The notes under the pieces were generated by a model, which had not been told where the DNA came from, ran no database searches, and saw nothing but the letters and a program-made list of their open reading frames with translations. Of a DNA stretch of 44,185 bases, positions 1-44,185 are shown one piece after another. A program made the position numbers and the translations under genes. How positions within the stretch are numbered: the stretch's first letter is position 1; each line of letters starts with the position of its first letter. Origin of the DNA: a virus (lineage: Duplodnaviria; Heunggongvirae; Uroviricota; Caudoviricetes); the IMG/VR virus record IMGVR_UViG_3300045988_018548; one strand, given 5' to 3'.

Positions 1-119
1 ATGCTTCGATATCTGTGATTTTCATTTCTCTCTACTCCGTTCTCGTTGTCGATGGAGTAAATATAATAGGGTCGAGGGTAATAGTCAACTAGTCATTGCA
101 GAAAATAGATAAAAAAAAT
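1..119. repeat. terminal direct repeat, exact copy of 44067..44185
   Basis: 119/119 nt identical at both window ends; length matches a common assembler k-mer, so probably circular-assembly overlap rather than a biological terminal repeat. Confidence 0.9.
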
Positions 120-3145: not shown

Positions 3146-3183
3146 GTAAATGAATGGTATCCTATTCTCCCCCAGTGTGCAAG
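3146..3183 (-). promoter_or_regulatory. class II conserved promoter motif (degenerate copy) for leftward small genes
   Basis: Minus-strand reading TTGCACACTGGGGGAGAATAGGATACCATTCATTTACA aligns with motifs at 4199..4232, 26307..26342, 35924..35957; followed by GAGGAGAGG and ATG at 3123. Confidence 0.4.
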
Positions 3184-3338
3184 TAAATTTTATTGGTGTT
3201 TGTATTGTTGCATCTCCTGCAATAGTCGCTTCGATTGTTGCGTTTGGTGAAATAGAACAAAAATGAGAAAAATGATACGCTGCTGTGTAGCAGCGTAAGT
3301 CACTCAGTAAAATCTCAAACTATTGTTACAATATAGCA

Positions 3339-4168: not shown

Positions 4169-4198
4169 AACCCCAACTCCTCTGTCTCGTTCCGATAA

Positions 4199-4232
4199 GT
4201 GAATAGTGTCCTATTATATTGGGGTGTGCAAG
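4199..4232 (-). promoter_or_regulatory. class II conserved promoter motif (TTGCAC-N17-CACTAT on minus strand)
   Basis: Minus-strand reading TTGCACACCCCAATATAATAGGACACTATTCAC; near-identical to motifs at 26307 and 35924. Confidence 0.5.
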
Positions 4233-4396
4233 AGAATAGTTACGATGCCGTTGTGATTCTTTCGTTTCTTAAAAGAGTACGCAACGCAGTGGGTGGGCGT
4301 TAGCCCACCCCAGCGGAGTGAAGTACTCTCTACCTTGCTTACGGCAACTATAGAAACTTTTAATTATCAGTGGCTTGGGTATTTAGGCGGGATTAA

Positions 4397-4540
4397 CAAT
4401 AGACTTTGGCCCTTCCGAAAGCGCCAGCGGAACTACACTCAAGTGCCTAATGGCACGCGTTGCGTTCCCTGCCGCTCCGCGGTCGCTTGCGATATCTCAC
4501 AAGCTCAGTGAAGCTTAGCATATTTTTAAGTAAAAGTCAA
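4397..4540 (+). repeat. ~144-bp intergenic element, copy A (paralog of 35715..35857)
   Basis: About 75% identity to copy B by eye, same orientation, with hairpins at matching positions (gtgcc-taat-ggcac; aagct-cagtg-aagctt followed by T-run). Confidence 0.8.
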
Positions 4541-4615: not shown

Positions 4616-4646
4616 TTCGATACATGTTACACAGGAGAGCGTGAAA

Positions 4647-4816
4647 TGACTATCAATGAAGTTGCAGAATTAATCGGCGTCACCCGCCAGACAATTAATA
4701 ACTGGATTAAGAGTGGAAAGTTTCCTGATTGCAGCGTTAAAGTAATGGGTCGCAGAATGCCGGGTACATTTGACCGTAATAAAGTTGAATCGTGGGTTAA
4801 AGAGAACGTTAAATAA
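4647..4816 (+). CDS. AlpA/excisionase-family HTH DNA-binding protein
   Basis: 56 aa; MTINEVAELIGVTRQTINNWIKSGKFP matches the AlpA-type HTH pattern; RBS AGGAG. Confidence 0.6.
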
Positions 4817-7480: not shown

Positions 7481-7499
7481 AAGGGGCGTTAAGCCCCTT
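7481..7499 (-). terminator. stem-loop (GGGGC-GTTAA-GCCCC) between convergent genes, U-tract on minus strand
   Basis: Hairpin overlapping the stop of the XRE gene; A-run on plus side gives U-run on minus transcript. Confidence 0.5.
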
Positions 7500-7704
7500 C
7501 ACCGAACGCCAGCCACTTGGCGTCTACCTCCAGCACTTCCGCCAGTTTAAACAGCGTTGCCGGGCGGACGTCCTGGGTTACCCCAAGTGCCAGCTGGTTA
7601 ATTGCGCTCTGGGAAACCCCGGTCAGCACCGCCAGACGGCGCTGGGAGATGCCGAGTTCTTTACGGCGTTTTTCTACACGGATGCCTAGTTCAGATGGTT
7701 GCAT
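7489..7704 (-). CDS. XRE-family HTH transcriptional regulator (Cro/CI-like)
   Basis: 71 aa; ELGISQRRLAVLTGVSQSAINQLALG is a classic XRE HTH; RBS AAGGAG; divergent from early promoter. Confidence 0.75.
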   Translation of the reverse strand: MQPSELGIRVEKRRKELGISQRRLAVLTGVSQSAINQLALGVTQDVRPATLFKLAEVLEVDAKWLAFGEGA

Positions 7705-7724: not shown

Positions 7725-7797
7725 TTGATATGTGAATAGTACCATATTAATTATTTTAGAAAAGCCCATTGACATGTGAATAGTTCACTATTATAGT
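7725..7797 (+). promoter_or_regulatory. early promoter TTGACA-N17-TATAGT (7769..7797) with two TGTGAATAGT operator-like sites
   Basis: Consensus -35 and near-consensus -10 at 17-bp spacing; dyad AATAGT-TC-ACTATT in spacer; second TGTGAATAGT copy 44 bp upstream. Confidence 0.6.
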
Positions 7798-8350: not shown

Positions 8351-8357
8351 CTATCAC

Positions 8358-8377: not shown

Positions 8378-8393
8378 ACTGAGGGTCGGAATT

Positions 8394-8609: not shown

Positions 8610-8620
8610 GGGTCAGAATT

Positions 8621-8824
8621 ATGGCTATTTTAGTTAAGAAAAGTGGTCTTATGATTTCTGGTAGCGTTGTCTCTGAAAATGATTTGGTTTACGTATTTCA
8701 GGCGGTAGACAACAAACACCCTACGACGGTAAAGAAGGTCAGCAAAGTTGAGAAGGTTTTCGACGGCGATTTTTCTATTGACGATGTTTTCACGTGGATT
8801 AACTCTGCGAGGGTAAAGAAATGA
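8621..8824 (+). CDS. hypothetical protein
   Basis: 67-aa ORF with near-identical RBS context to the preceding gene. Confidence 0.35.
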   Translation: MAILVKKSGLMISGSVVSENDLVYVFQAVDNKHPTTVKKVSKVEKVFDGDFSIDDVFTWINSARVKK

Positions 8825-9093
8825 TTTACCAACTCTACCGCGCCGTAGACAGGCGGGATAACACAGAGGCGCTATGGCTGTTGCGCGCGCCGTCCGGTGC
8901 ACACCAGATGGAAGAGATGGCGTACTTAGGCAAAGTGCCACGGCCTAAAGACATAGGCCGCCACGTGTCACATATTAAGCGCACGACTTTCGCCAAACCG
9001 GACTTTTACGTCTTCGAGTCGATGTATGGCTGGGCTATGCACTGCGACCATAAGACACGACATTTAATTGACCAGTGGGAGAGCAGAGCATGA
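8821..9093 (+). CDS. hypothetical protein
   Basis: 90-aa ORF, start overlaps upstream stop. Confidence 0.35.
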   Translation: MIYQLYRAVDRRDNTEALWLLRAPSGAHQMEEMAYLGKVPRPKDIGRHVSHIKRTTFAKPDFYVFESMYGWAMHCDHKTRHLIDQWESRA

Positions 9094-10361: not shown

Positions 10362-10365
10362 AGTG

Positions 10366-10394
10366 TTGACACCTGAATAGTTAGCTATTATAGT
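10366..10394 (+). promoter_or_regulatory. promoter TTGACA-N17-TATAGT with AATAG-N4-CTATT dyad in spacer
   Basis: Hexamers and spacing read directly; same architecture as 7769..7797 and 14210..14238. Confidence 0.6.
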
Positions 10395-10459
10395 TCTAAT
10401 CACTGGCCGGGCAGCTTCCCGGAGTAAACTGAAAATCTAAACTTAATGAGGGCTGAACT

Positions 10460-11086
10460 GTGGGACTGAAATTAAATCTGCGTAAAGTAAACACTGCATG
10501 GGTTAACGTATTCGAACGCGAAAAAGACCGTGAAAACGATGATGGCTCAATCACTAAAGGCCAGTACAGCGCGACTATCATCCTGCCGTCTGACCACGCA
10601 CAAATCGACGCGCTCTACGACACCGTTTACGCTGTGGTTGAAGAAGCGTTAGGCGCAGCCGCCGCAGAGAAGTGGATGAAGTCCAACTACGGCGAAGGAA
10701 AGCACATGGATAAATGCGCGATTAAAGACATTGCCGAGCGTGACAATCCGTTTGAAGACTTCCCGGAAGGCTTCTACTTCAAAGCGAAGGCACAGAAACA
10801 ACCGCTGATTGTAACCTCTAAAAAAGGCGAGACTCAGGTAGAGCAGGACTTCAATGTAGACGGCGAACAGATTGAAGGCGAACAGGTTTACAGCGGCTGC
10901 GTAGCTAACGTAAGCGTTGAAATCTGGTTCAGCCAGAAATATAAAGTTCTCGGGGTTAACCTGCTGGCGATTAAATACGTCGGCGAAGGTAAAGCGTTCG
11001 GTGGTTCTAAAGTCGCTGCAAGCGTCGATGACCTTGAGGACAACGAAGAAGATGAAGCACCGCGCCGCGAACGTCGCCGCCGCTAA
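10460..11086 (+). CDS. DUF2815-like single-strand DNA-binding protein
   Basis: 208 aa; acidic C-terminal tail DDLEDNEEDEA typical of SSBs; sits beside DUF2800 as usual for this module; GTG start. Confidence 0.55.
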   Translation: MGLKLNLRKVNTAWVNVFEREKDRENDDGSITKGQYSATIILPSDHAQIDALYDTVYAVVEEALGAAAAEKWMKSNYGEGKHMDKCAIKDIAERDNPFEDFPEGFYFKAKAQKQPLIVTSKKGETQVEQDFNVDGEQIEGEQVYSGCVANVSVEIWFSQKYKVLGVNLLAIKYVGEGKAFGGSKVAASVDDLEDNEEDEAPRRERRRR

Positions 11087-11105
11087 TATCTGAATCAATT
11101 TAACT

Positions 11106-11130
11106 AAGGCCCTTCATTGGGCCTTTTTAC
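11106..11130 (+). terminator. rho-independent terminator (aaggccc-ttcatt-gggcctt + TTTTT)
   Basis: GC-rich hairpin followed by T-run, immediately after stop of 10460..11086. Confidence 0.7.
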
Positions 11131-11145
11131 TAAGGGTCGAAAATA

Positions 11146-11424
11146 ATGGCAGCGGAACTTAAGAGATACAGACGCATCACCTACTGCAAATTTTGTAAGG
11201 CAGAAGGTAAAAAAGTTAGAGCAATTTGGATGACTAAATATCCTCCTGCTTACAAGTTACGAGACTGGTATAAACACTATGCATGCGACGAGCATAAACA
11301 TTTAATAGAGGACACAGACCCAAACCGGACTTGGGCAGAAATCCTAGAGCGCAGTAAAAACCAGAAACCAGAACGCGACGACCATCTCACAGAAGCAGAC
11401 TATCAGACGTGGTACAGACTATGA
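11146..11424 (+). CDS. small zinc-ribbon-like protein
   Basis: 92 aa; CKFC ... CDEH Cys/His pairs. Confidence 0.4.
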   Translation: MAAELKRYRRITYCKFCKAEGKKVRAIWMTKYPPAYKLRDWYKHYACDEHKHLIEDTDPNRTWAEILERSKNQKPERDDHLTEADYQTWYRL

Positions 11425-13604
11425 ACACATTGCTTTACTTAGACTTTGAAACATTCTCCGAAGCCGATTTAAAGAAAGTCGGCTCCTACGCTTACGCCGA
11501 ACACCCGACTACAGAAGTGCTCATCTGTACCTATGCTTTTGACGACGAGCCTGTACAGGTATGGGATTGCACCGACGGCAGCGACATGCCGGGCGATTTG
11601 CATCGCGCGTTACGCCGTCTGGTTAAGCCGAACAGCCGCATTAAGATGGTGTGGCACAACGGCTCAATGTTCGACCGCCTAATCATGAAGCACTGCTGGG
11701 ACTTTGATATTCCGGTAAGCAACACCGTTGATACGATGATTTGGGCGTTTCGTCACGCGCTACCTGGTTCACTTGATGCGTTGTGTGAAGTGCTGGGCGT
11801 GTCCGCAGACAACGCGAAAGATAAACGCGGCAAGGCGCTGATTCAGCGTTTTTCTAAACCGACGCCGAAGAACTACAAAATCCGCCGATACACCGCCGAA
11901 ACGCACCCGGATGAGTGGGCGCTGTTCATCAAGTATGCCGTGAGTGACATCACGGCGATGCGTGAAGTGTTCCATAAGCTGCCGCGGTGGGGTAACTCCG
12001 AGTTCGAAGACCGTGTACTGGAGCTGGACCAGTTAATTAATGACCGCGGGTTTAAGGTAGACGTTGCACTGTCGGAAGCCGCGATTGAAGCCGTGGAGAA
12101 GCACAAGGCACAGTTACAGGAAGAAGCCCAGCGCAAATATGGCGGCTCTCTTACTGGGAAGGACTTTCTGCCTATTCTGCGTGAACTTGCGCCAGCGCAC
12201 CGCATCAACAACGCACAGAAGTCGACGCTTAACGACCTGCTGGCGGATGATGACTTACCGGACGACGCACGCACAATTATCGAAATGCGCCTCGGGGCTG
12301 CGTCCACCGCATCAACGAAATATAACCCGCTGCTGTTGGGTCGCTCGTCGGACGACCGCCGCCGCGGTTGCATTCAGTACGGCGGGGCCAAGCGTACGCT
12401 ACGGTTTGCTGGCAAAGGCTTCCAGCCACAGAACCTGGCGCGCGGGTACTATCACGATGATGAGCTGGATAAAGGCATTTCTGCGTTACTTAAAGGCCGT
12501 GCGCACCGTCGTTTCGATGTAGCCAAACTAACGGCATCGACGGTTCGTAGCTGCATCATACCGGAAGCTGGGCATAAGTTTGTCGTAGCTGATTACTCTA
12601 ACGTTGAAGGCCGTGGTTTGGCGTGGCTGGCTGGCGAAGAAACCGCGCTCGATACATTCCGTGCCGGGCTGGATATTTACTGCGTAACCGCAGGTAAGAT
12701 GTTCGGCATGGAGCCGGATTACATTAAGAAAGAACGCAAAGACTTGCGCCAGATAGGTAAGGCCTGCGAACTTGGACTTGGCTATGCGGGCGGGGTAGGT
12801 GCTTTCGTTCAGTTTGCTAAGAACCTCGGCCTCGACCTGGTTGATATGGCAAAAACAATGGATGGGACTTTCCCCGACCACATCTGGGCCGCTACCGCAC
12901 GTGGATATGAGTGGGCGCGTATTCAGGAAGCCAAGCGACCACCACGTCCAGGTGAAAAGGATGACCGACCATCATATATTCTTGATAAGAAAGTGTGGCG
13001 TACCTGTGACGCTATCAAGCGCATGTGGCGCGAGTCTCACCCGGAAACAGTAGCTTTCTGGCGAGATATTGAAGATGCAGCTATGGCGGCTATCCGCAAC
13101 CCAGGTAAAGAGTTCACCGCAGGGCCGCGGGGTGTTAAGTTTTCGCGTAACGTAGAAACAGACACCAACGGCAACAAAGTCGCGGGCTGGTGGTTGCGCA
13201 TGACGTTGCCGTCGGGCCGCGTTATGTCTTACCCGGGCGTTGGTTTAAGTGTATCAAAAGAGACAGACGAAGACGGGAAGGTGTCTACTAACGTGCGCAT
13301 AAAGTACCAGGGTGAAAACCAGTTAACCCGTCAGTGGGGCTTCCAGTACACATATTCCGGTAAACTCGTGGAAAACTGCACTCAGGCGCTGTGCCGTGAT
13401 TTGCTGGCTAACGCCCTGCTGAACGTAGAGGCCAACGGCTACCCGATTGTACTTCATGTTCACGATGAAATTATCTGCGAGACACCAGATTTACCAGAAT
13501 ACAATGTCGCAGAGCTGGAACGGTTGATGTGCGAATTACCGGAGTGGGCAGAGGGTTTCCCTCTTGTAGCGGAAGGTGCGGAGTTAAAACGTTATGCTAA
13601 GTAA
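11409..13604 (+). CDS. DNA polymerase, family A (3'-5' exonuclease + polymerase domains)
   Basis: 731 aa; Exo I LDFETFS; polymerase motif C VHDEIICE; probable start ATG 11421. Confidence 0.9.
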   Translation: MVQTMNTLLYLDFETFSEADLKKVGSYAYAEHPTTEVLICTYAFDDEPVQVWDCTDGSDMPGDLHRALRRLVKPNSRIKMVWHNGSMFDRLIMKHCWDFDIPVSNTVDTMIWAFRHALPGSLDALCEVLGVSADNAKDKRGKALIQRFSKPTPKNYKIRRYTAETHPDEWALFIKYAVSDITAMREVFHKLPRWGNSEFEDRVLELDQLINDRGFKVDVALSEAAIEAVEKHKAQLQEEAQRKYGGSLTGKDFLPILRELAPAHRINNAQKSTLNDLLADDDLPDDARTIIEMRLGAASTASTKYNPLLLGRSSDDRRRGCIQYGGAKRTLRFAGKGFQPQNLARGYYHDDELDKGISALLKGRAHRRFDVAKLTASTVRSCIIPEAGHKFVVADYSNVEGRGLAWLAGEETALDTFRAGLDIYCVTAGKMFGMEPDYIKKERKDLRQIGKACELGLGYAGGVGAFVQFAKNLGLDLVDMAKTMDGTFPDHIWAATARGYEWARIQEAKRPPRPGEKDDRPSYILDKKVWRTCDAIKRMWRESHPETVAFWRDIEDAAMAAIRNPGKEFTAGPRGVKFSRNVETDTNGNKVAGWWLRMTLPSGRVMSYPGVGLSVSKETDEDGKVSTNVRIKYQGENQLTRQWGFQYTYSGKLVENCTQALCRDLLANALLNVEANGYPIVLHVHDEIICETPDLPEYNVAELERLMCELPEWAEGFPLVAEGAELKRYAK

Positions 13605-13725
13605 ACTGATTATCGCGGTGCTGGCGGGATTCGCCGCCGGTGTCTACTGTCACGAGGGTCAATACGGCATGATGGCCGCCGTATTGGGTATGTTAGTAGC
13701 AATTCATCTGTGGGTGATGGAATGA
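13594..13725 (+). CDS. small membrane protein
   Basis: 43-aa hydrophobic ORF (below track threshold) overlapping polymerase stop. Confidence 0.3.
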   Translation: MLSKLIIAVLAGFAAGVYCHEGQYGMMAAVLGMLVAIHLWVME

Positions 13726-13807
13726 AAATTTACTGGTTCTACGAAGAAGACTGCCGAATCTGTCCGCGCTGCGGGATTGAGCACACGAAACGAGAGGGGT
13801 GCGTATT

Positions 13808-13960
13808 ATGACAAGGTTTGTATTTTGGGCAATAGTAACCATGCTCGCACTGTTACTCGGTGCGGGAGTAGCTGCAATGTTCTGTTACAGCATGTTTTTT
13901 AAGTTTGTCGGTGTTGCCCTTCTAGGCGGGGCCTTCATTACCCGGATTCTGCGGTCATGA
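13808..13960 (+). CDS. small membrane protein
   Basis: 50-aa ORF with two hydrophobic helices; ATGA overlap with downstream VRR-NUC start. Confidence 0.3.
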   Translation: MTRFVFWAIVTMLALLLGAGVAAMFCYSMFFKFVGVALLGGAFITRILRS

Positions 13961-14241
13961 CTCCGGAAGGCAAGATTCAGAAATACGCAAAAGACCGATT
14001 CGAGGCCATTGGCGGCCTCGTTCGCAAGATGGCATTTGAAGGCCGGCGAGCCGCCATGGACCTCCTGGTAATTCTCCCCGGTGGCATCGTCTGGTTCGTC
14101 GAGATTAAGAAAGACGAAAATACGAAGCCAGACCCGCACCAGATACGTGAACACGAGAGATTCCGAAAACGCGGCGCAAATGTTTTTGTCGTTGGGTCGT
14201 TCAAACAGGTTGACGACCTAATAGCGAACTATTATAGTTAG
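13957..14241 (+). CDS. VRR-NUC domain nuclease
   Basis: 94 aa; ...VWFVEIKKDENTKPDPHQ... matches VRR-NUC D/E-x-K core by eye. Confidence 0.6.
   Translation: MTPEGKIQKYAKDRFEAIGGLVRKMAFEGRRAAMDLLVILPGGIVWFVEIKKDENTKPDPHQIREHERFRKRGANVFVVGSFKQVDDLIANYYS
14210..14238 (+). promoter_or_regulatory. promoter TTGACG-N17-TATAGT with AATAG-N4-CTATT dyad, embedded in 3' end of VRR-NUC gene
   Basis: Hexamers and spacing read directly. Confidence 0.55.
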
Positions 14242-14271
14242 TCCTACACCAACAATATAAGGAATTGAGAA

Positions 14272-14466
14272 ATGAAACACGAATATGACCGCAAACCAGC
14301 ACGTGACATCGTACCGGGCGATATGATTTTCAACGTTAAGACTCGCCAGCCTGTTGCCGTTGATACGGTGTTCGTAGAGTCAAACGGTAAACTGGTCATC
14401 GAAGATGTAACTGGTAACGTTACGGCGTTCGGACGTAAAGAGCTGGTACTCTACGTTAAGGATTGA
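14272..14466 (+). CDS. hypothetical protein
   Basis: 64-aa ORF with RBS AAGGAA. Confidence 0.35.
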   Translation: MKHEYDRKPARDIVPGDMIFNVKTRQPVAVDTVFVESNGKLVIEDVTGNVTAFGRKELVLYVKD

Positions 14467-15893
14467 GTATGTCTAAATTTATCCGTCGAGAGTACCAGAA
14501 GCTCATGACTTCGTTCATGCTGCAACACCCGCGCTGTAATATCTGGTGCGGCATGGGAGGGGGTAAAACCTCCTCCACTATGTGGGTGCTAAACCGCCTG
14601 TTTCGCAACGGGCAACTTACAGAAGAGGACCGCGTGTTAATCCTCGCCCCATTGCGAGTTGCGTCAGGCACGTGGCCTGCTGAACAAGAGAAATGGAACT
14701 TCCCTTGTCTGCGTGTTGTCGACGCTACGGGTTCAGAGAAGCGCCGCATCGCGGCGCTGGAGTCTGATGCTAACGTGGTGTGCACTAACTACGAAGTTAT
14801 CGAGTGGCTTATCGACTACTACGGCAAAGACGACTGGCCTTTTACGGTTATCGTTGCCGATGAAAGCACGAAGCTTAAATCATTCCGTAGCCGTTCTGGC
14901 GGAAGCAAGCGAGCAAAGGCGCTTAGTAAAGTGGCATTTGGAAAGGTTAAACGTTTCATCAACCTGACTGGCACACCGTCGCCAAACGGACTCAAAGACT
15001 TGTGGGGTCAGAACTGGTTTATCGACGCTGGCGAGCGACTCGGCTCATCGTACACAGCATTCACAGACCGCTGGTTTAACTCGGTACAGAAAGGTAAGTC
15101 GGCGATGGCGCGTGAATATCACGCGCGCCCGGGTGCAGATAATGAGATTCATCAGAAGATGAAAGACATCAGCCTTACCATCGACCCTGCTGAGTGGTTT
15201 GGATGTGAAGCACCAATTATCGTGCCGGTTGAAATCGACCTGCCTAAGAAAGCGCGTCAGGCGTACATAGATATGGAGGAGAAGTTATTCGCGGAACTGG
15301 AGAGCGGAGAAGTTGAAGCGGCTAACGCTGCGGCGAAGACGTCGAAGTGTTTGCAGATTGCCTCTGGTGCCGTGTATGTATCGGGCCCGGACGGCGAAGC
15401 AACGAAAGACTGGGAGAAAGTGCACGACACGAAACTGGATGCGCTGGAGTCCATTGTTGAGGAGTTACAGGGTGCGCCGCTACTGGTAGCCTATCAGTTC
15501 AAGCACGAACTGGAGCGCATCCTTAAGCGATTCCCGCAGGCGCAGGCGTTTGCAAAAGGTGCTAAGGGTAATAAACAGATGGAGGCGTGGAACCGTGGCG
15601 AAATCGAAATCTTATGCGTCCACCCAGCGTCCGCTGGTCATGGTTTGAATTTACAGGACGGCGGACATCATCTGGCGTTTATTTCGCAAGGCTGGAACCT
15701 CGAGCACTATTTGCAGGTTGTCGAGCGCATAGGCCCGGTACGCCAGAAGCAGGCAGGCCACGAGCGCCCGGTATTCCTCTATCACATCGTTGCTAAAGAC
15801 ACGCTGGACGAGGTTGTTGCCGCGCGCACCGACGAGAAGAAATCTGTACAGGAAGAATTGCTTAATTACATGAAGAGACGAGGTAAGAAATGA
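14463..15893 (+). CDS. SNF2-family (DEAD/DEAH-box) helicase
   Basis: 476 aa; Walker A GMGGGKTS, DEAH-like VIVADESTKLK, LTGTPSPNGLKDLW motif. Confidence 0.8.
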   Translation: MSMSKFIRREYQKLMTSFMLQHPRCNIWCGMGGGKTSSTMWVLNRLFRNGQLTEEDRVLILAPLRVASGTWPAEQEKWNFPCLRVVDATGSEKRRIAALESDANVVCTNYEVIEWLIDYYGKDDWPFTVIVADESTKLKSFRSRSGGSKRAKALSKVAFGKVKRFINLTGTPSPNGLKDLWGQNWFIDAGERLGSSYTAFTDRWFNSVQKGKSAMAREYHARPGADNEIHQKMKDISLTIDPAEWFGCEAPIIVPVEIDLPKKARQAYIDMEEKLFAELESGEVEAANAAAKTSKCLQIASGAVYVSGPDGEATKDWEKVHDTKLDALESIVEELQGAPLLVAYQFKHELERILKRFPQAQAFAKGAKGNKQMEAWNRGEIEILCVHPASAGHGLNLQDGGHHLAFISQGWNLEHYLQVVERIGPVRQKQAGHERPVFLYHIVAKDTLDEVVAARTDEKKSVQEELLNYMKRRGKK

Positions 15894-16075
15894 AACTTAA
15901 TGTTGGCGATGAAATATACAGCGTACATTCATTCAATACTTTCACCATCGAGTACATATCAAAAGACGGCAACAGCTTTGTCTTGGTAAGCTCGGACGGT
16001 AAATACGAAAAGTCACGCTGCTACACGCTGCCGGACATAAAGCGCAGTTTCAAGAAAAGCGAAGGTAAGAAATGA
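15890..16075 (+). CDS. hypothetical protein
   Basis: 61-aa ORF overlapping helicase stop. Confidence 0.35.
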   Translation: MKLNVGDEIYSVHSFNTFTIEYISKDGNSFVLVSSDGKYEKSRCYTLPDIKRSFKKSEGKK

Positions 16076-16209
16076 ACATCATAGCTCCGATTCCGGCATT
16101 GCAAAAACGTATCAAGGAACTTGAGGAGGAGGTTCTACGACTACGACAGCAAAGAGACGCCGCTAATGCGCAACTGGCGTTTGTACTGGAGAAGTTATCC
16201 GAAGATTAG
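16072..16209 (+). CDS. small coiled-coil protein
   Basis: 45-aa ORF, ATGA overlap with upstream gene. Confidence 0.3.
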   Translation: MNIIAPIPALQKRIKELEEEVLRLRQQRDAANAQLAFVLEKLSED

Positions 16210-16213
16210 AGAA

Positions 16214-16240
16214 AAGGCCCCGATTGGGGCCTTAGTTTTA
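16214..16240. terminator. bidirectional rho-independent terminator (aaggcccc-gatt-ggggcctt)
   Basis: 8-bp GC stem flanked by A-run upstream and T-run downstream, between convergent early and tail operons. Confidence 0.7.
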
Positions 16241-26198: not shown

Positions 26199-26306
26199 TC
26201 TTTAATCCTTTGGTTAAGAGGTTACAGGTTAATGGTAAATGCGCCAGACGGGAACCACCCGCTTTTCGTGTGCGACACTAGGCGCAAAATTATTCTATCA
26301 CATTAC

Positions 26307-26342
26307 TTGCGCACCCCAACATAATAGGATACTATTCACTTA
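26307..26342 (+). promoter_or_regulatory. class II conserved promoter motif (TTGCGC-N17-TACTAT)
   Basis: TTGCGCACCCCAACATAATAGGATACTATTCACTTA, about 35 bp upstream of ATG 26377. Confidence 0.55.
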
Positions 26343-26376
26343 CACCAACAATGTTAACTCAAACAGGAGCTACACC

Positions 26377-26568
26377 ATGACAGGTATTACTATGTTCTTC
26401 TTAATCATTATCGTTTTAGTTTATTTTATCCCGTTTTTAGTGGCCCATATGCGCGGACATAAAGCGAAACTGGCGATATTCATGGCTAATCTGTTTCTCG
26501 GCTGGGTTCTGCTGCCGTGGGTATTTATTTTAATCTGGGCTTGCAACTCGAATGTCAAAGAGAAGTGA
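26377..26568 (+). CDS. small membrane protein (two predicted TM helices)
   Basis: 63 aa; MFFLIIIVLVYFIPFLVA and LFLGWVLLPWVFILIWA; RBS AGGAG. Confidence 0.45.
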   Translation: MTGITMFFLIIIVLVYFIPFLVAHMRGHKAKLAIFMANLFLGWVLLPWVFILIWACNSNVKEK

Positions 26569-26606
26569 GCTAGTATAGGACAAATCCTAAACACGAGGAA
26601 GTAAGC

Positions 26607-27737
26607 ATGGCCCGGAAGAAAATAACCGACGAACAGTTACAGGAAGAATTGAACGCCGGAACAAAGATTATCGACATATCCCGTAAATACGGCATCTCAG
26701 ACCGAGTTATTCGTATCCGTAAAGCGAAGCTGGCGAAGAAAGGCGTAGGTCACGGTCGTGACGTTAGCCATCTTGTCCCGGACGGCTACAAAATTAAAGG
26801 AACGTCGTCACTGGTGGACGAGTTCGGCAACACTAAGTTGCAATGGGTTAAGACAGACACCGACGCCGAACGTCAGGTCGAGTTAATGAAAGCCGTGATC
26901 GAAGGAATGAAGTCGGAGATTACGCCAGTTGCGCCGGTTAAAGCGACTCGAGCCAAACGCGATGATAAACTACTCAATCTGTACACGGTATCTGATTTCC
27001 ATCTTGGTATGCTGGCCTGGGCTGACGAGAGCGGCGACGACTGGGATATGAAGATTGCGGAAGACCTGTTCTCCCGATGGTTCGATGCGGCGTTTCAGAA
27101 AGCACCAGATGCAGGAACTGGGGTTATTAACCTGCTGGGTGACTTCGCGCACTTCGATAGTCTGGATGCGGTTACGCCAGCGAGTGGTCATGTTCTTGAT
27201 GCGGACACTCGTTATCAGAAACTGGTCCGATACATGATTCGTATGGTACGCCGTGTTGTTGACATGGCGCTGGTTAAGCATAAATCTGTTCGCTTGCTTA
27301 TCGTGCAAGGGAACCACGACGAAAGCGGAATGATTTGGTTAGCTGAGATGTTTAGTACGCTGTACGACAATGAGCCGCGTGTGTTCGTCGATACGTCGCC
27401 GGATGTTTACAAGATGGTCCAACACGGCAAAACTACGCTGTTCTTTCACCACGGGCATAAGGCGCGATTCGACGCTATCGAACCGGTAATGATTGCCAAG
27501 TTCCGTAAAGCGTTCGGCGAGAGTGTTTACAGCTACGCCCACGTAGGCCATCTGCACCACCAGAAGATTGTAGAAAGCCGTAACATGATTGTTGAGCAAC
27601 ACCGCACCTTAGCGGCTAAAGACGCCTACGCCTCGCGCGGCGGATGGATGTCGGGCCGTAGTGCAAATGTAATTACTTATAGCGCCGAATATGGCGAGGT
27701 CGCACGTTTAACTATTTCACCGGAGATGCTGGGATGA
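26607..27737 (+). CDS. HTH domain fused to calcineurin-like metallophosphoesterase
   Basis: 376 aa; N-terminal HTH-like IIDISRKYGISDRVIRIRK; phosphoesterase motifs DFH, GDFAH, GNHDE, HHGH, GHLHH in canonical order. Confidence 0.7.
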   Translation: MARKKITDEQLQEELNAGTKIIDISRKYGISDRVIRIRKAKLAKKGVGHGRDVSHLVPDGYKIKGTSSLVDEFGNTKLQWVKTDTDAERQVELMKAVIEGMKSEITPVAPVKATRAKRDDKLLNLYTVSDFHLGMLAWADESGDDWDMKIAEDLFSRWFDAAFQKAPDAGTGVINLLGDFAHFDSLDAVTPASGHVLDADTRYQKLVRYMIRMVRRVVDMALVKHKSVRLLIVQGNHDESGMIWLAEMFSTLYDNEPRVFVDTSPDVYKMVQHGKTTLFFHHGHKARFDAIEPVMIAKFRKAFGESVYSYAHVGHLHHQKIVESRNMIVEQHRTLAAKDAYASRGGWMSGRSANVITYSAEYGEVARLTISPEMLG

Positions 27738-27934
27738 AAGATATGTATGAATGTACCGATGTGAGTCCGTACGCGGAGAAAAATGGATTCGAAGTAGGTG
27801 CGGTATATGAAGGGGTCACCCTAGAGAACGGCGACGTAAGAATGTATTCGCCTAAATATCGCAGCTTCTTTGAAATAGGCAACATTAACGAGTCAGGCAT
27901 AGCCCGATTTAAGAGAGTTAACAGTGACAAATAA
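27734..27934 (+). CDS. hypothetical protein
   Basis: 66-aa ORF, ATGA overlap with upstream gene. Confidence 0.35.
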   Translation: MKDMYECTDVSPYAEKNGFEVGAVYEGVTLENGDVRMYSPKYRSFFEIGNINESGIARFKRVNSDK

Positions 27935-28154
27935 ATACAACCGCACAATGACAAACATTCACGGCAGCACTATGACGGTTGACGTTTACGACGTGCTACG
28001 CGCCTTCGACATACGGGACCCAGCGTTACAGCACGCATTGAAGAAGCTATTGTGTATGGGCCTTCGCGGACACAAAGACACAGGAACAGACTTAGCGGAA
28101 GCAATTGAAAGCCTGGAGAAGTTACGGGAGTACAGGGGTAACATTGATGAGTAA
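27924..28154 (+). CDS. hypothetical protein
   Basis: 76-aa ORF overlapping upstream gene. Confidence 0.35.
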   Translation: MTNKYNRTMTNIHGSTMTVDVYDVLRAFDIRDPALQHALKKLLCMGLRGHKDTGTDLAEAIESLEKLREYRGNIDE

Positions 28155-28157
28155 GAA

Positions 28158-28177
28158 AAGGCCCCGAAAGGGGTCTT
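28158..28177 (+). terminator. stem-loop aaggcccc-gaaa-ggggtctt
   Basis: GC-rich hairpin after stop at 28154; weak T-tract. Confidence 0.45.
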
Positions 28178-28190
28178 ATCGCAACAGGAG

Positions 28191-28685
28191 ATGATTATGG
28201 ACTGGAATGAATTTTTCATATACGACTTAATTTCAGGAAGGATATTTAACAGAGTAACCCGGTCCGGGAGGGCTAAGGCTGGAGAGGAAGCGGGTACTGT
28301 CCAGCGAGACGGATATAGAAGGATATTTTTCCGAGGTAAATGGCACGCGGCGCACCGTATAGCTTGGGACTTAAACAATCCTAACGATAAGCTAACCTCG
28401 TCAGATCAAATAGGCCATCTAGACCATGACCGAATAAACAATAGACCGCTTAACTTAGCTAAAAAGTCCAATGCGGAAAACCATAAAAATATGTCAAAAC
28501 AGCGTAATAATAAATCAGGAGTAACCGGGGTTTACTGGAACGCGAAAGAAAGGTTGTGGTACGCACAGATATTCAACAATAACGTAAAAACACACATCGG
28601 GTGCTTTAAAACGCTACTAGATGCAGTTGCCGCGAGGAGAGTTGCTGAAAGAGATTTAGGGTTCCACGAGAACCACGGTAAATAG
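28191..28685 (+). CDS. HNH homing-type endonuclease with C-terminal AP2 DNA-binding domain
   Basis: 164 aa; HNH core AHRIAWDL ... IGHLDHDRINNRPLNLA ... AENHKN; AP2-like SGVTGVYWNAKERLWYAQI; likely start at second ATG (28197). Confidence 0.8.
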   Translation: MIMDWNEFFIYDLISGRIFNRVTRSGRAKAGEEAGTVQRDGYRRIFFRGKWHAAHRIAWDLNNPNDKLTSSDQIGHLDHDRINNRPLNLAKKSNAENHKNMSKQRNNKSGVTGVYWNAKERLWYAQIFNNNVKTHIGCFKTLLDAVAARRVAERDLGFHENHGK

Positions 28686-35628: not shown

Positions 35629-35648
35629 GCCCCGCCATAAAGCGGGGC
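35629..35648 (-). terminator. minus-strand terminator (gccccgc-cataaa-gcggggc then U-rich)
   Basis: 7-bp GC stem; minus transcript continues UUUACUUAUC; lies between head genes and spanin start. Confidence 0.5.
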
Positions 35649-35714
35649 GCTAGTCCTTATCATTTAAACATAGAAACGGCGTAATCTCAGTAAACCAGTT
35701 ACTTTTTACACAAG

Positions 35715-35857
35715 CAATAGAGTACGGCCCTTCCGAACGCGTCAGCGTAACTACACTCAGGACTTACGTCCCGCTCCGTTACCTGCCCGCGCCGCGGTCG
35801 CTTGTTCATACTTCACAAGCTCAGGTGGAGCTTATCATATTTTTAGTGAAAAGTCAA
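35715..35857 (+). repeat. ~143-bp intergenic element, copy B (paralog of 4397..4540)
   Basis: Aligned by eye to copy A; hairpins ggac-ttac-gtcc and aagct-caggtgg-agctt at matching positions. Confidence 0.8.
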
Positions 35858-35870
35858 CTATTCGAATAGT
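35857..35870. promoter_or_regulatory. perfect 14-bp palindrome ACTATTCGAATAGT (operator-like)
   Basis: Self-complementary; half-sites match the AATAG/CTATT dyad in promoters. Confidence 0.5.
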
Positions 35871-35923
35871 TTATTCTAACATTTACAATTACGAAGAATA
35901 ACTGGAATACGTAAACAAATAGT

Positions 35924-35957
35924 TTGCAGACACCAATATAATAGGGTACTATTCACT
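35924..35957 (+). promoter_or_regulatory. class II conserved promoter motif (TTGCAG-N17-TACTAT)
   Basis: TTGCAGACACCAATATAATAGGGTACTATTCACTCA, about 25 bp upstream of ATG 35982. Confidence 0.55.
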
Positions 35958-35981: not shown

Positions 35982-36233
35982 ATGATTACGAAACCAGCAA
36001 AACATCGTGTACAGGACCTTGGTTCCTTTCTTAAAAAAGAGTATGAACAGGCTGAATTACGCGGCGATATTTCGGCGTATATTGAGCTTCAGCAGATGCA
36101 ACTGGACGCGCAAGAAGACGGGGATATGTCTCTATCCGCCGCGCTCGGTAGAAGTATGCGCCAGATTCGTGAAAAGTATAACCAAAACGTCTGGAATAAA
36201 GAGATTAACTTAACCCAAGAGACTGGGTATTGA
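35982..36233 (+). CDS. small hydrophilic protein, lone rightward gene inside late region
   Basis: 83 aa with own promoter and terminator; RBS AGAGG. Confidence 0.45.
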   Translation: MITKPAKHRVQDLGSFLKKEYEQAELRGDISAYIELQQMQLDAQEDGDMSLSAALGRSMRQIREKYNQNVWNKEINLTQETGY

Positions 36234-36237
36234 AACT

Positions 36238-36259
36238 AAGGCCCCGTAAGGGGCCTTTT
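36238..36259. terminator. bidirectional terminator aaggcccc-gtaa-ggggcctt + TT
   Basis: Perfect 8-bp GC stem between convergent genes. Confidence 0.65.
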
Positions 36260-36260
36260 A

Positions 36261-36722
36261 TCATTCTGGTTTAGTGACCTTCGCCGCCTTGCTCACCGCC
36301 TCTACCCCATCGGCATCAGTAACTTTAACGAAGTATTCACCGACCGCATTAACCGTCAGTGACGAGGCCTCTTCCGGGGCGTTTACAACTTCCTTACCGT
36401 CTTTGTACCAGGTCAGCGCGTACGGGGCTTTACCCGCCTTAACTTCAACAGTGATAATTGCGCTGCCGTCCACCAGTTCGGTGCCTTGCGGTTGTACGGA
36501 GAAATACACATCGCCAGCATCGGCCAGATACGGAATTTCATAAAGCATACCTGCCGCGGAGAGTGCGATACCGGTTTTATCCGCGTACGGCATCTCGTCT
36601 ACAGGTGTACCTAGTACACTTTCATCTTCAACGTAGGTTACGTTCTCGCCGGAGCCAGACACACGAGCGTACTGGACTACGCGACGCGACGGCACATCAG
36701 TTACTTTGAAAAAGCCCATCAT
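36261..36722 (-). CDS. Ig-like (Big_2-type) domain protein
   Basis: 153 aa; C-terminal ITVEVKAGKAPYALTWYKDGKEV ... GEYFVKVTDADG; start overlaps stop of head morphogenesis gene (TAATG). Confidence 0.5.
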   Translation of the reverse strand: MMGFFKVTDVPSRRVVQYARVSGSGENVTYVEDESVLGTPVDEMPYADKTGIALSAAGMLYEIPYLADAGDVYFSVQPQGTELVDGSAIITVEVKAGKAPYALTWYKDGKEVVNAPEEASSLTVNAVGEYFVKVTDADGVEAVSKAAKVTKPE

Positions 36723-38614
36723 TAATCCCCTTTCAGATAATCAGCAACACGTTTATCGAGTTCCGCCATCTGCTTAAGCGTGAGCGGATTCCCGAAACCA
36801 TCTACAGATATTACGCGAAACTCTTCCGGTGATATACCGCTGTTACGGAAAATCTTACCGCGAACAGGGCCGAGCGCCTGGTCCTGAAACCACGCAGGTT
36901 GTTGTTTGAGGAACTCATAATAGGTGGTGTCTGCACTTACCTGCATACCACCGTCCGCACCCTTAGCCGCGCGTTTTGCGCCTTTATCGAGGAAGTCGAA
37001 CTCAGAACTGATTACTGGCGCGGTTGTTGAGCGACAATTATGTGCTATAATTCCATTTGCGAGATACCAGTTCTGTTCATTTTCGAGGTTATAAACATGC
37101 CCGCAAAAATCAGCTTCACTAAAGACCAAATCGACAACATCATCAAGCTCTATACCGACGGCATCGGACCAGTTGAAATCGGAAAGATTATCGGCGTTTC
37201 GTGTAACCCAGTCATACGCGTTCTCAGAGAGAACGGCGTTAGTATTCGCGGTGTCAGCGACGCTATGTTTATCAGAATGGCTAAAGCTACTCCCGAGGAG
37301 CGCCTCGCTCTCTCCGCCGCGGCGCATGAAGCTGTCCGAGGGAGAAAGGCCGACCATGCTGAACTGCTTCGCAGAGCCAAAGCCAGAGAGGGAGTCATAA
37401 ATGCGGGAAGCCACTGGGAGTTCCTTGTCAATGATTTGCTTATTCAGTCCGGACTTGACTTTATCCCAGGAAAGGCGGTTGACAAGTACAATCTCGACTT
37501 CGCCGTCGGTTCCGTCGCCGTGGAAGTCTTCGGTGGTGGTTGGGCTTGTACGGACCGCCGCAGGATTGACCGCTACATTAGCCGCACTAAACAAATCGGA
37601 GAACTTGGCTACAACGTTGTGTTCCTTATGCTTGAGAGAGAGCGCAGAGTCCTTAGCGCACACGAGCTTGTCGCCTACATTGAGAAGGCCGGAAGCAACC
37701 CAACCATTGGTAGTCAATACCTGGTGGTTTGGGGTGATAGACAAGGTGCGACCGGACCTTGTAGAGACATAGACTATAGTGCCTTTGTACGCCCGTTTAA
37801 AAATGTTAGAAACCGGACTACCGGTAGATACTACAGTATCCCCAAGTAAGCAATTATGATGGGCCGGAGGCATCGGCCCTTTACCGATTTCCCACGTCAT
37901 CCTGTCTCTGGCTCTGCAAATCGTACTGGTACGGCTGTCCAGCGTTGATACCCACTCGTATTTCTCGATGATGTCGTCGTTCTGGCGGTACGTCTCGTTA
38001 CGGGCTTCGTTGGATACATGAGACAGCGCGGTGCGGATTACTGTAGCCGCGTTACGTTCTGAGATGTCGGCCAGCCCACCAGAGCCTACGACATTCTTAA
38101 CAATCTGCCGTGTGGTTTGACCTTGTACAAAGCCCATCTTAACTCCAGTTACGAGGCGGGCGACTTCGGTTTCACCCCAACCAGACATCAATTTAGTGAA
38201 GTCAACAGGCTTGTCGTTTAACGATAATGGCTGAAAATCGGCGGCGGCCCACACCTGTTCGGCGGTAGGCGTAACAAATTCCGCGTTAACGTTGGCGGTT
38301 AGTGTCTTTACGTTCCACTCAGCCTCGTATGCCGCCAGTTCCTTAAGGTCTTCTGTCAGCTTTGTTTGCCAATCGCCGGTAAGTCCGGTTAGCGCTTCTT
38401 CAAGGTCGAGTAACAGTTTATTCAGTCGCGCAGTGCTCCGCCCGTCATCACCGAATAACAGCACCTGCCGTTTTATTTCATCCCGCATCTCCTTAATGAA
38501 CGGTGCGAGGTCTTTCACCTCACCGGATGCGGTGCGTTGCAGCCATATCTGATGGCTGATGAGTGATGTAAGTAAGCTCATAGTTAAACCCTGTGGTGCT
38601 AAAGTTAATAGCAT
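36722..38614 (-). CDS. head morphogenesis protein (phage Mu F / SPP1 gp7-like) containing an intein
   Basis: 630-aa precursor; exteins join to ...STICRARDRMTWEIGKGPMPPAHHN-CRSTTAP..., matching the H-x-N-C-R signature of this family; located between portal and capsid genes. Confidence 0.75.
   Translation of the reverse strand: MLLTLAPQGLTMSLLTSLISHQIWLQRTASGEVKDLAPFIKEMRDEIKRQVLLFGDDGRSTARLNKLLLDLEEALTGLTGDWQTKLTEDLKELAAYEAEWNVKTLTANVNAEFVTPTAEQVWAAADFQPLSLNDKPVDFTKLMSGWGETEVARLVTGVKMGFVQGQTTRQIVKNVVGSGGLADISERNAATVIRTALSHVSNEARNETYRQNDDIIEKYEWVSTLDSRTSTICRARDRMTWEIGKGPMPPAHHNCLLGDTVVSTGSPVSNIFKRAYKGTIVYVSTRSGRTLSITPNHQVLTTNGWVASGLLNVGDKLVCAKDSALSLKHKEHNVVAKFSDLFSAANVAVNPAAVRTSPTTTEDFHGDGTDGEVEIVLVNRLSWDKVKSGLNKQIIDKELPVASRIYDSLSGFGSAKQFSMVGLSPSDSFMRRGGESEALLGSSFSHSDKHSVADTANTNAVLSENAYDWVTRNADNLSDFNWSDAVGIELDDVVDLVFSEADFCGHVYNLENEQNWYLANGIIAHNCRSTTAPVISSEFDFLDKGAKRAAKGADGGMQVSADTTYYEFLKQQPAWFQDQALGPVRGKIFRNSGISPEEFRVISVDGFGNPLTLKQMAELDKRVADYLKGD
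37024..37051 (+). promoter_or_regulatory. extended -10 promoter (TTGTTG-N16-TGcTATAAT) inside the intein, plus-strand
   Basis: Perfect TATAAT at 37046..37051 with TG at 37043..37044; 45 bp upstream of GAGGT RBS (37085..37089) and ATG 37097. Confidence 0.45.
37037..37852 (-). other. intein (272 aa, Hint splicing domain) within the head morphogenesis gene
   Basis: Begins CLLGDTVV (block A), TPNHQVLT (block B), ends VYNLENEQNWYLANGIIAHN followed by Cys (blocks F/G); no in-frame LAGLIDADG or HNH module seen. Confidence 0.8.
37097..37849 (+). CDS. HTH + DUF559/Vsr-like (PD-(D/E)xK-fold) endonuclease-like protein, encoded antisense within the intein
   Basis: Track ORF 37040..37849, start revised to ATG 37097 with GAGGT RBS; N-terminal HTH-like GPVEIGKIIGVSCNPVIRVLRENG; core YNLDFAVGSVAVEVFGGGW ... 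DRRRIDRYISRTKQIGELGYNVVFL resembles DUF559; balanced K/E/D/I composition unlike shadow ORFs. Caveat: same codon register as the minus-strand gene. Confidence 0.5.
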   Translation: MPAKISFTKDQIDNIIKLYTDGIGPVEIGKIIGVSCNPVIRVLRENGVSIRGVSDAMFIRMAKATPEERLALSAAAHEAVRGRKADHAELLRRAKAREGVINAGSHWEFLVNDLLIQSGLDFIPGKAVDKYNLDFAVGSVAVEVFGGGWACTDRRRIDRYISRTKQIGELGYNVVFLMLERERRVLSAHELVAYIEKAGSNPTIGSQYLVVWGDRQGATGPCRDIDYSAFVRPFKNVRNRTTGRYYSIPK

Positions 38615-38624
38615 ACTATAAGAA

Positions 38625-38640
38625 AGCCCCTTTCGGGGCT
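38625..38640 (-). terminator. stem-loop agcccc-tttc-ggggct, U-rich on minus strand (possible attenuator between portal and head genes)
   Basis: Hairpin with A-run on plus-strand 5' side. Confidence 0.4.
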
Positions 38641-43945: not shown

Positions 43946-44091
43946 TTCTCATCTCCTGCATAAGCTGCTTTCAGTGTCTGCATCGCGGCGAACCAGAACG
44001 CGTCCGCCGGAATGCTGTTGCTCAGGTTACCAACGGCGATGCGTGCCATCAGTTGTGCGTCTTTGAATGCTTCGATATCTGTGATTTTCAT
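43942..44091 (-). CDS. small hypothetical early protein, first gene of leftward early operon
   Basis: 49-aa ORF with RBS GGAG; start codon lies inside the 119-bp terminal repeat. Confidence 0.3.
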   Translation of the reverse strand: MKITDIEAFKDAQLMARIAVGNLSNSIPADAFWFAAMQTLKAAYAGDEK

Positions 44092-44185
44092 TTCTCTCTA
44101 CTCCGTTCTCGTTGTCGATGGAGTAAATATAATAGGGTCGAGGGTAATAGTCAACTAGTCATTGCAGAAAATAGATAAAAAAAAT
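44067..44185. repeat. terminal direct repeat, exact copy of 1..119
   Basis: 119/119 nt identity to window start. Confidence 0.9.
44126..44154 (-). promoter_or_regulatory. minus-strand promoter TTGACT-N17-TATATT for the leftward early operon
   Basis: Hexamers at 17-bp spacing; lies within the terminal repeat, so also present at 60..88. Confidence 0.5.

Follow-up and report, generated by a model that had tools for sequence, protein, structure and literature searches.

What recognizes a conserved, promoter-like motif that recurs in front of small accessory genes of a virulent phage? The question is raised by a stretch of DNA of 44,185 nucleotides (IMG/VR virus record IMGVR_UViG_3300045988_018548; the whole of it is hereinafter the window), in which an earlier note had described four copies of a 36-bp motif, among them the one at 26307..26342 on the plus strand, had named them a "class II" promoter family and had attributed the unusually conserved spacer to a dedicated factor or a shared operator. 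The window is a complete genome of an Escherichia coli siphophage of the genus Kagunavirus (Guernseyvirinae); a 10-kb slice of it finds its best match in Escherichia phage fBC-Eco01, with identities to Kagunavirus genomes that reach 97%. At both its ends, 1..119 and 44067..44185, the window carries one and the same sequence (a 119-bp assembly overlap), so that it represents one whole genome, circularly permuted and about 44,066 bp long. On balance, the sequence comparisons described below lead us to favor reading the motif as a set of weak host sigma-70 promoters that have a 14-bp palindrome in common, the operator of a phage repressor; the idea of a separate "class II" family finds no support.

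The motif and its four copies

All four copies lie where the earlier note had placed them. The degenerate 34-mer that corresponds to its consensus is matched without mismatches only at 26307..26340 (TTGCGCACCCCAACATAATAGGATACTATTCACT) and 35924..35957 (TTGCAGACACCAATATAATAGGGTACTATTCACT) on the plus strand and at 4198..4231 on the minus strand (TTGCACACCCCAATATAATAGGACACTATTCACT), and has no match in 100 dinucleotide-preserving shuffles. The motif is real, although its consensus had been typed two bases too long: the true unit is 34 nt, with 'ACACCCCAA' standing for ACCCCAA or ACACCAA. The family of four, likewise, comes down to three near-identical 34-mers, with which the copy at 3182 has in common only TTGCAC and the 3' half AATAGGATACCATTCATT; the 5' half of its spacer (ACTGGGGGAG) is unrelated to the others. 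The AATAG-N4-CTATT dyad said to lie in every spacer is exact in three copies and carries one mismatch in the 3182 copy, where CCATT replaces CTATT; in most relatives, the dyad is intact at this site. We refer to these four sites as Set B:

26307..26340, plus strand: promoter P26307; -35 TTGCGC at 26307-26312, 17-bp spacer, -10 TACTAT at 26330-26335
26323-26336: dyad of P26307, AATAGGATACTATT; predicted transcription start near A26342
35924..35957, plus strand: promoter P35924; -35 TTGCAG, -10 TACTAT at 35947-35952, dyad at 35940-35953; predicted transcription start near A35959
4198..4231, minus strand: promoter P4231; -35 TTGCAC at 4231..4226, -10 CACTAT at 4208..4203 (TACTAT in most relatives), dyad at 4202-4215
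3149..3182, minus strand: divergent copy, preceded by a terminator at 3297..3276; -35 TTGCAC at 3182..3177, -10 TACCAT at 3159..3154, dyad at 3153-3166 with one mismatch

Each copy stands in front of a small accessory gene, as the earlier note had proposed, at distances close to those it had given (about 25 to 40 bp): 36 nt separate the end of the motif from the start codon for 26307, 24 for 35924, 29 for 4231 and 26 for 3182. The products are the superinfection immunity protein Imm, a DUF7170 protein and two proteins without an assigned function:

26377..26568, plus strand: Imm superinfection-immunity membrane protein, the first gene after P26307
35982..36233, plus strand: 83-aa cargo gene without a family match, downstream of P35924
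3899..4168, minus strand: 89-aa gene (phrog_12538), downstream of P4231
2973..3122, minus strand: 49-aa DUF7170 gene, downstream of the 3182 copy

The true start of the Imm gene is ATG 26377 (63 aa) rather than the upstream ATG 26239 of the mechanically called open reading frame (ORF), as indicated by the extent of the Imm_superinfect domain, the Shine-Dalgarno sequence caggag and the 59-aa annotation in the Jerseyvirus Ent2. Both the mechanical ORF and the annotation of the relative Snoke (109 aa) begin the gene upstream of its own promoter (26239..26376), which is likely a widespread annotation error.

All Set B sites have the layout TTGCNN, 17 bp, (T/C)AC(T/C)AT, followed by a common CA-rich leader and a Shine-Dalgarno site before the start codon. 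The resemblance to a sigma-70 promoter is thus weak but discernible: the four -35 elements read TTGCGC, TTGCAG, TTGCAC and TTGCAC, so that only three of the six positions match the consensus TTGACA, a weaker fit than in the replication promoters described below, which have TTGACA, although the TTG never varies, either in the window or in relatives; every copy has a spacer of 17 bp; and the -10 element always has A as its second and T as its last base. In relatives, the family consensus of the -10 element is TACTAT, from which two of the copies in the window (CACTAT and TACCAT) deviate.

The motif is also present in related phages, another point raised in the earlier note. A 51-nt Set B unit was found at 357 places in 157 of 50,697 phage records; all 157 are phages of enterobacterial hosts, the kind that makes up the Guernseyvirinae. 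The sampled Kagunaviruses carry two to four Set B copies each, almost always with no annotated feature beneath the match.

A palindrome shared by two sets of predicted promoters

The dyad is by far overrepresented in the genome. There are six exact occurrences compared with 0.04 expected from base composition, and 14 with at most one mismatch compared with 1.15 expected; AATAG-N4-CTATT is the commonest dyad in the window genome, in Snoke and in Ent2. We compared its placement with the gene map, given that, according to the earlier note, a similar frequency inside coding regions would speak against a regulatory motif: in a genome that is about 91% coding, five of the six exact dyads are intergenic, the sixth overlaps the final codons of the upstream gene, and none falls within a gene body, so that this objection does not hold.

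Only three of the six exact dyads belong to Set B. The other three occupy the spacers of promoters in the replication region (hereinafter Set A), and an imperfect dyad lies nearby, at 7735. Because the same dyad recurs there, inverted and in another register, the four copies do not make up a self-contained family:

7769..7797, plus strand: Set A promoter TTGACA-N17-TATAGT with the dyad at 7779-7792 in its spacer; first promoter of the replication operon, upstream of a phrog_3127 protein and a DUF2800 nuclease
10366..10394, plus strand: Set A promoter TTGACA-N17-TATAGT with the dyad at 10376-10389; ahead of the genes for a Gp2.5-like single-stranded DNA-binding protein (SSB) and DNA polymerase
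14210..14238, plus strand: Set A promoter TTGACG-N17-TATAGT with the dyad at 14220-14233; ahead of a 64-aa gene and a SNF2 helicase gene
7735..7748: imperfect dyad O1, AATAGTACCATATT, separated by 44 bp from the dyad at 7779; located where the replication operon and a 71-aa helix-turn-helix (HTH) gene diverge

The Set A promoters are the best sigma-70 matches in the genome, with ranks 1, 2 and 5 among 88,308 positions scored with a crude sigma-70 matrix. Rank 6 belongs to the promoter of the 71-aa gene, TTCACA-N16-TAAAAT (7780..7753, minus strand), which is bracketed by the 7735 and 7779 dyads, with O1 located at or just past its predicted start. The two sets have the same framework, in which the TTG hexamer begins 23 bp before the -10-like hexamer (N17) and a shared CA-rich leader follows 7-8 nt past the -10. 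Within this framework, the dyad shifts. In Set A, it fills the spacer, and its final T is the first base of the -10 element, whereas in Set B it covers the -10; counted from the -35, the dyad is offset by 10 in Set A, by 16 in Set B and by 13 in the imm promoter of Ent2. Orientation varies as well. With its flanks, the conserved core is asymmetric and 20 bp long, GTGAATAG-N4-CTATTATA, one arm of the dyad extending to ATAATAG; this core faces the gene in Set A, and Set B carries its reverse complement, facing away. Such variable register and orientation suggest an independent protein site rather than an RNA polymerase contact, which requires fixed geometry.

The pattern of conservation points in the same direction. 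The 4-bp center of the dyad occurs in more than 12 variants and the flanks also vary, but the arms are held at orthologous sites in Kagunavirus and Jerseyvirus. A sister clade, represented by Salmonella phage GRNsp27 and covered by five genomes or loci, has no exact dyads at all. Its SSB promoter is orthologous, TTGACA-N17-TATATT, with the same length and the same leader ATCACTGGCCGGGCAG, and other gene blocks of this clade have dyad-free promoters of the TTGACA or TTGCAT type. Thus, these promoters apparently work without the dyad, which is an add-on. Exact and gapped k-mer censuses of the GRNsp27 clade detected no replacement operator, that is, no motif common to its promoters, so that a clean operator swap is not demonstrable.

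Taken at face value, these features suggest the following scheme. Host sigma-70 RNA polymerase would read Set B weakly, from the -35 TTGCNN through the 17-bp spacer to the -10 (T/C)AC(T/C)AT, and transcription would start about 7 nt past the -10, at the shared CA-rich leader (ACACCAAC.../ACGAGAGG...) that bears the ribosome-binding site. The over-conserved spacer sequence would be accounted for by a 14-bp operator, AATAG-N4-CTATT, at about -19 to -6 in Set B, overlapping the -10; the same operator would sit at about -25 to -12 in the three consensus-strength replication promoters and flank the promoter of the 71-aa gene, giving eight or nine operator-bearing sites in the genome. Sites at -19 to -6 or -25 to -12 occupy positions typical of repression. 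The binder would most likely be a dimeric HTH protein encoded by the phage; by covering the -10 region, it might shut down or dampen all these promoters together, the targets being non-structural promoters, including that of the 71-aa gene itself. As in operators of the Cro/CI type, the putative site is a palindrome of 14-18 bp that overlaps the core promoter, and an HTH_3 gene has such dyads (7735 and 7779) in its own control region. In line with the earlier note, which had raised a dedicated factor or a shared operator, the dyad is best read as an operator that these sites share and that serves a dedicated factor.

Several observations weigh against this reading. Set B scores poorly as a sigma-70 promoter: its copies rank 79, 211, 742 and about 2100 among the 88,308 positions, and the built-in promoter scan called none of the four, so that we infer their promoter function from geometry and context. 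The sole Kagunavirus transcriptome is coarse, with gene-level time classes and no mapped starts (PMC12645636). The phyletic patterns come from just two or three independent lineages.

Other interpretations of the motif and other candidate sites were considered and rejected. If the TATAAT in the left arm were the true -10 of Set B, the invariant TTGCAC would lie 7 bp away and be left unexplained, and the distance from the -10 to the leader, common with Set A, would be broken; we take TTGCNN/TACTAT as the working Set B promoter because the spacing of TTG, -10 and leader is then equal in both sets. A hairpin or cruciform role for the dyad was dismissed, with folding energies of -1.9 to -2.7 kcal/mol (z about -1.2) no different from those of shuffled sequences; a search for known RNA families returned none in the whole window at the gathering threshold and none significant near the motif. 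Among the one-mismatch dyads, two (80/44146 and 35849) represent the -35 element, TTGACT, of other promoters, the one at 19141 falls within a tail gene, and the one at 1480 is not conserved in Snoke. The status of one more such dyad is uncertain; it is listed here together with the dyad-free promoters:

38607..38620: one-mismatch dyad (TATAGTATGCTATT on the minus strand), after a terminator at 38640..38625 and before the capsid-morphogenesis gene; kept in Snoke
88/44154: dyad-free promoter TTGACT-N17-TATATT, ahead of nin-like genes and terminase
4540 and 35857: two copies of a dyad-free promoter, TTGACT-N17-TAAGCT

Two candidate binding proteins

Two small HTH proteins encoded in the window are candidates for the operator-binding protein:

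7489..7704, minus strand: Cro/CI-type HTH_3 protein of 71 aa (HTH_3 E-value 3.6e-13), candidate operator-binding repressor
4646..4816, plus strand: HTH_17 (excisionase/MerR-like) protein of 56 aa, encoded at the head of the primase-helicase operon and preceded by a dyad-free promoter of its own
beginning at 4588: dyad-free promoter of the HTH_17 gene, TTGCTT-N17-TATACT

We rate the two about equally, naming the Cro-like protein as the binder with slightly less than even confidence and the HTH_17 protein with nearly as much; that something else binds is improbable. A second contig, IMGVR_UViG_3300045988_011391 (44,173 bp), encodes Cro-like and HTH_17 proteins identical to those of the window.

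The best solved relative of the 71-aa protein is 434 Cro, matched over its full length (3e-7), and 434 Cro binds 14-bp dyads. The dyads flanking the promoter of the Cro-like gene are spaced 44 bp apart in the window and 55 bp apart in Ent2, that is, in the same helical phase. In the Kagunavirus transcriptome, an HTH gene is among the four early genes (PMC12645636); by gene order, we equate it with the Cro-like gene. What speaks against this candidate is its divergence. The Cro-like proteins of Kagunavirus and Jerseyvirus are only 51% identical though the operator core is the same, and their recognition helices differ (QSAINQ/QGAINQ vs QSLITH); moreover, the dyad-less GRNsp27 clade has a 42%-identical Cro-like homolog with a similar helix, QSAISH.

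The case for the HTH_17 protein, conversely, rests on its distribution. Its Kagunavirus and Jerseyvirus versions are 75-80% identical, and it is the sole gene with a recognized DNA-binding domain that these genera have in common and that is missing from GRNsp27; in the complete GRNsp27 genome, tblastn found no HTH_17 gene, and the best hit of a six-frame hmmsearch had an E-value of 1.2. A search of IMG/VR and GenBank phages for lineages with only one of the two HTH genes showed HTH_17 confined to Kagunavirus and Jerseyvirus, apart from one unrelated 42% match without dyads. Structure and covariation count against this protein. Its nearest solved relatives, both weak, are an excisionase and BldC, which bind direct repeats rather than palindromes. 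Within Kagunavirus, two versions of its helix (TRQTINNW and TRRTLNNW, the latter also found in Jerseyvirus) go with indistinguishable half-sites, and the outer -1 base is G or T in either of these subgroups and T without exception in Jerseyvirus; varying by genus, this base follows the type of the Cro-like protein and not the HTH_17 subtype.

The joint absence of the HTH_17 gene and the dyad from the GRNsp27-like clade could also be taken further. Under such an extension, which we regard as less likely than not, the HTH_17 protein, not the Cro homolog, would read the palindrome as a one-way global switch of the eight or nine host-type promoters of a virulent phage, the sites and the gene would be gained or lost together, and the promoter-operator cassette would double as a recombination joint for the exchange of accessory genes between genomes.

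Alternative explanations

Could the sites be plain sigma-70 promoters with no dedicated binder, the spacer and dyad being historical, copied as one promoter-leader cassette spread through duplication or recombination, and the palindrome a by-product of AT-rich -10-like hexamers on both strands? The arms indeed give -10-like sequences both ways (TACTAT on the top strand, TAGTAT/TATTAT on the bottom strand), and at 26307 a good opposite-strand promoter, TTAACA-N17-TAGTAT (26329..26357, minus strand, rank 15), uses the same bases, its -10 overlapping the P26307 dyad; facing the tail genes, it may be a divergent promoter toward them (start 26198), in which case 26307 would be bidirectional. Set B, furthermore, heads exchangeable cassettes, with homology blocks that stop at the motif, and the leaders are shared as well. 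Nevertheless, the arms stay constant at orthologous sites of the two genera while the center and flanks drift, the dyad is also present in the Set A spacer, where it gives just one base to the -10, and at three of the four Set B sites a promoter pointing backward would find no gene to transcribe. With the sister-clade promoters free of the dyad, it appears to be under selection of its own, and we consider a binder-free origin improbable. Somewhat less probable still is that the dyad serves loading or activation, with the HTH_17 protein activating the weak Set B promoters or, like Q, AlpA or PrtN, making the polymerase resistant to terminators. Weak promoters could need such help, some records label HTH_17 orthologs 'pyocin activator protein' or 'DNA-binding transcriptional activator', the operons served contain intrinsic terminators (3297..3276 and the hairpin at 11107 after the SSB gene), and the presence of HTH_17 tracks that of the dyad. 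The site, however, overlaps the -10 or fills the spacer, as is typical of repression, and Set A is already of consensus strength. MerR-type activation involves a spacer of 19-20 bp, compared with 17 bp here, the 56-aa protein lacks an AlpA-like N-terminal extension, and the initially transcribed sequence of the four copies shows no evident -10-like pause element.

A host transcription factor as the binder is very unlikely, in our estimate. Phages do depend on the host transcription apparatus, but nothing direct speaks for such a factor: GRNsp27-like Salmonella phages lack the dyad and Jerseyviruses, which infect the same host genus, have it, and the motif is confined to phages of the Guernseyvirinae type among the 50,697 records. 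The dyad is not known to match the operator consensus of an E. coli regulator (CRP, ArgR, Fur, LexA and others). Hardly credible, finally, is recognition by a phage-encoded RNA polymerase, the kind of T7-style class that the label "class II" suggests, even though a 20-mer found seven times in fBC-Eco01 with PHIRE has been termed a phage RNA polymerase promoter (PMC9825357) and seven PHIRE promoters are counted for phage Golestan (PMC7203180). The annotations of Snoke and Ent2 include no RNA polymerase gene, and no RNA polymerase Pfam domain was found in the ten largest ORFs of the window (at least 370 aa). The core, moreover, points toward the downstream gene at some sites and away from it at others, and it is flanked by canonical -35 and -10 hexamers.

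Relation to earlier reports and known systems

The 20-mer reported for fBC-Eco01, tgAATAGTa-ccTATTat-T (PMC9825357), is the same motif, on the strand opposite to Set B and at equivalent genome positions; the motif itself, thus, is not new. Both that report and the one on Golestan credit their sites to a phage RNA polymerase, for which the genome has no gene, and do not link them to -35 and -10 elements, a dyad or HTH proteins. The interpretation offered here, host-type promoters of two strengths with one operator and two candidate regulators, has not been made before as far as the searchable literature shows, and it would correct a published label for Kagunaviruses, which do not encode such a polymerase. 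If true, it provides a testable transcription-control map (two promoter strengths, one operator, two candidate regulators and predicted starts) for Kagunavirus and Jerseyvirus, phages much used in therapy and biocontrol. The regulation would be of a standard kind, with no new principle involved.

The closest parallel is with the Cro/CI systems of lambdoid phages (434 OR/OL, P22, lambda). As in 434, a 14-bp palindrome overlaps sigma-70 -35/-10 elements, and a small single-domain HTH_3 homolog of 434 Cro is encoded next to a divergent region with two flanking operators, one of them imperfect. Unlike those systems, the phage is virulent, with no CI partner, integrase or immunity switch, and the putative operator is spread over eight or nine dispersed promoters, in a register to the -10 that varies, rather than over two clustered regions. 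Here, binding is predicted only, and the covariation of operator and protein across relatives is mixed. Single phage proteins that act at many dispersed intergenic sites and several operons are exemplified by P1 C1 with its operators and by gp71 of mycobacteriophage L5 with its operator and stoperators. The window resembles these regulons in having many dispersed sites for one candidate phage DNA-binding protein; however, the P1 C1 and L5 sites are asymmetric and stoperators are orientation-dependent elongation blocks of temperate phages, whereas here the core is symmetric and lies on the core promoter in either orientation, unlike a stoperator. Nor does the site look like a MerR-type spacer operator, given the 17-bp spacer and a 56-aa HTH_17 protein without a coiled-coil region.

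Exchangeable accessory-gene slots

The layout of the genome, derived from the annotated relative Snoke and from Pfam and PHROG scans, places two of the Set B promoters at insertions within the structural region:

7829 to 16209, plus strand: replication block
long block, minus strand: small early, lysis, packaging, head and tail genes
26377-28685, plus strand: insertion inside the structural region, the superinfection-immunity gene first
35982-36233, plus strand: insertion inside the structural region

Within the structural block, the Mu F-like capsid-morphogenesis gene (36722..38614, minus strand) contains an intein (Intein_splicing domain, residues 264-526), annotated likewise in Snoke. In the replication block, the 64-aa protein encoded directly after the 14210 promoter (14272..14466, plus strand; phrog_4879, without a Pfam family) is 94% identical between Kagunavirus and Jerseyvirus, unusually high for a small protein, and is absent from GRNsp27.

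At 35924, the promoter heads a moron slot. P35924 drives a lone plus-strand gene, the 83-aa one, that ends at a terminator (36238-36257). The region 35800-35955 is present in 181 phage records, only two of which have the 83-aa gene; homology stops just past the motif, Snoke has an unrelated 173-aa gene in this place, and most relatives have other genes. A constant promoter, variable cargo and a conserved terminator, AAGGCCCC-N4-GGGGCCTT, are the features of moron or T4-type PeSL cassettes, although those belong to phages of another family than this siphophage, the promoter here also carries an operator, and recombination mediated by the repeat itself would be hypothetical in the present case. 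At P4231, the region ahead of the 4168 gene is 386 nt long, and many Kagunavirus loci have just its final 72 nt in common, namely, a 23-nt block and the promoter. This block, AGAATCACAACGGCA(A/T)CGTAACT (4232..4256, minus sense), lies just upstream of the 4231 promoter, is near-identical in Kagunavirus and Jerseyvirus, and is conserved above the adjoining promoter. What the four copies share beyond the -35, the -10 and the operator they probably owe to descent from one promoter-leader cassette, which heads exchangeable slots, to judge from these homology boundaries. The promoter as a conserved edge of such slots helps to annotate the superinfection-immunity gene and other cargo genes.

The terminator hairpin occurs in four near-identical copies, at 11107, 16215, 28688 and 36239. 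A terminator scan called two of them, 16214-16233 and 36238-36257, both at junctions between gene blocks that run in opposite directions; of the other two, the 28688 copy closes the imm operon and the 11107 copy comes after the SSB gene.

Paralogous RNA modules and other palindromes

Apart from the operator, the window contains two paralogous modules, at 4540..4395 and 35857..35712 (both minus strand), which are 74% identical over about 150 nt and may be of more interest than the promoter-operator arrangement itself. Each starts with the promoter TTGACT-N17-TAAGCT, continues with a structured RNA of about 100 nt, and is followed by a terminator-like hairpin (4309..4290 and 35648..35629) before the next genes. 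Comparison of 15 Kagunavirus sequences supports the hairpin GCUUGU/ACAAGC, a long helix in which compensatory pairs occur (one of them as CG, UA and AU) and an inner hairpin with two sides that change together. The module has no Rfam match, and blastn found none in Ent2 or GRNsp27. It could represent a put-like cis antiterminator or a small RNA.

Overlapping the -10 TAAGCT of each module is a second dyad, AAGCT(C/T)-N3/4-GAGCTT (4517..4497 and 35834..35813, minus strand), with arms that are kept between genomes and loop bases that vary; it may be another operator. The 35857 promoter is, in addition, abutted at its -35 by the palindrome CTATTCGAATAG (35858..35869), in which the 5-mers of the operator are everted. 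The equivalent late region of GRNsp27 contains GGAATAA(A/T)TTATTC(C) three times (29801, 30431 and 30684), one of them abutting TTGACA. These palindromes, CTATTCGAATAG and GGAATAA(A/T)TTATTC(C), may represent an activator site for late promoters.

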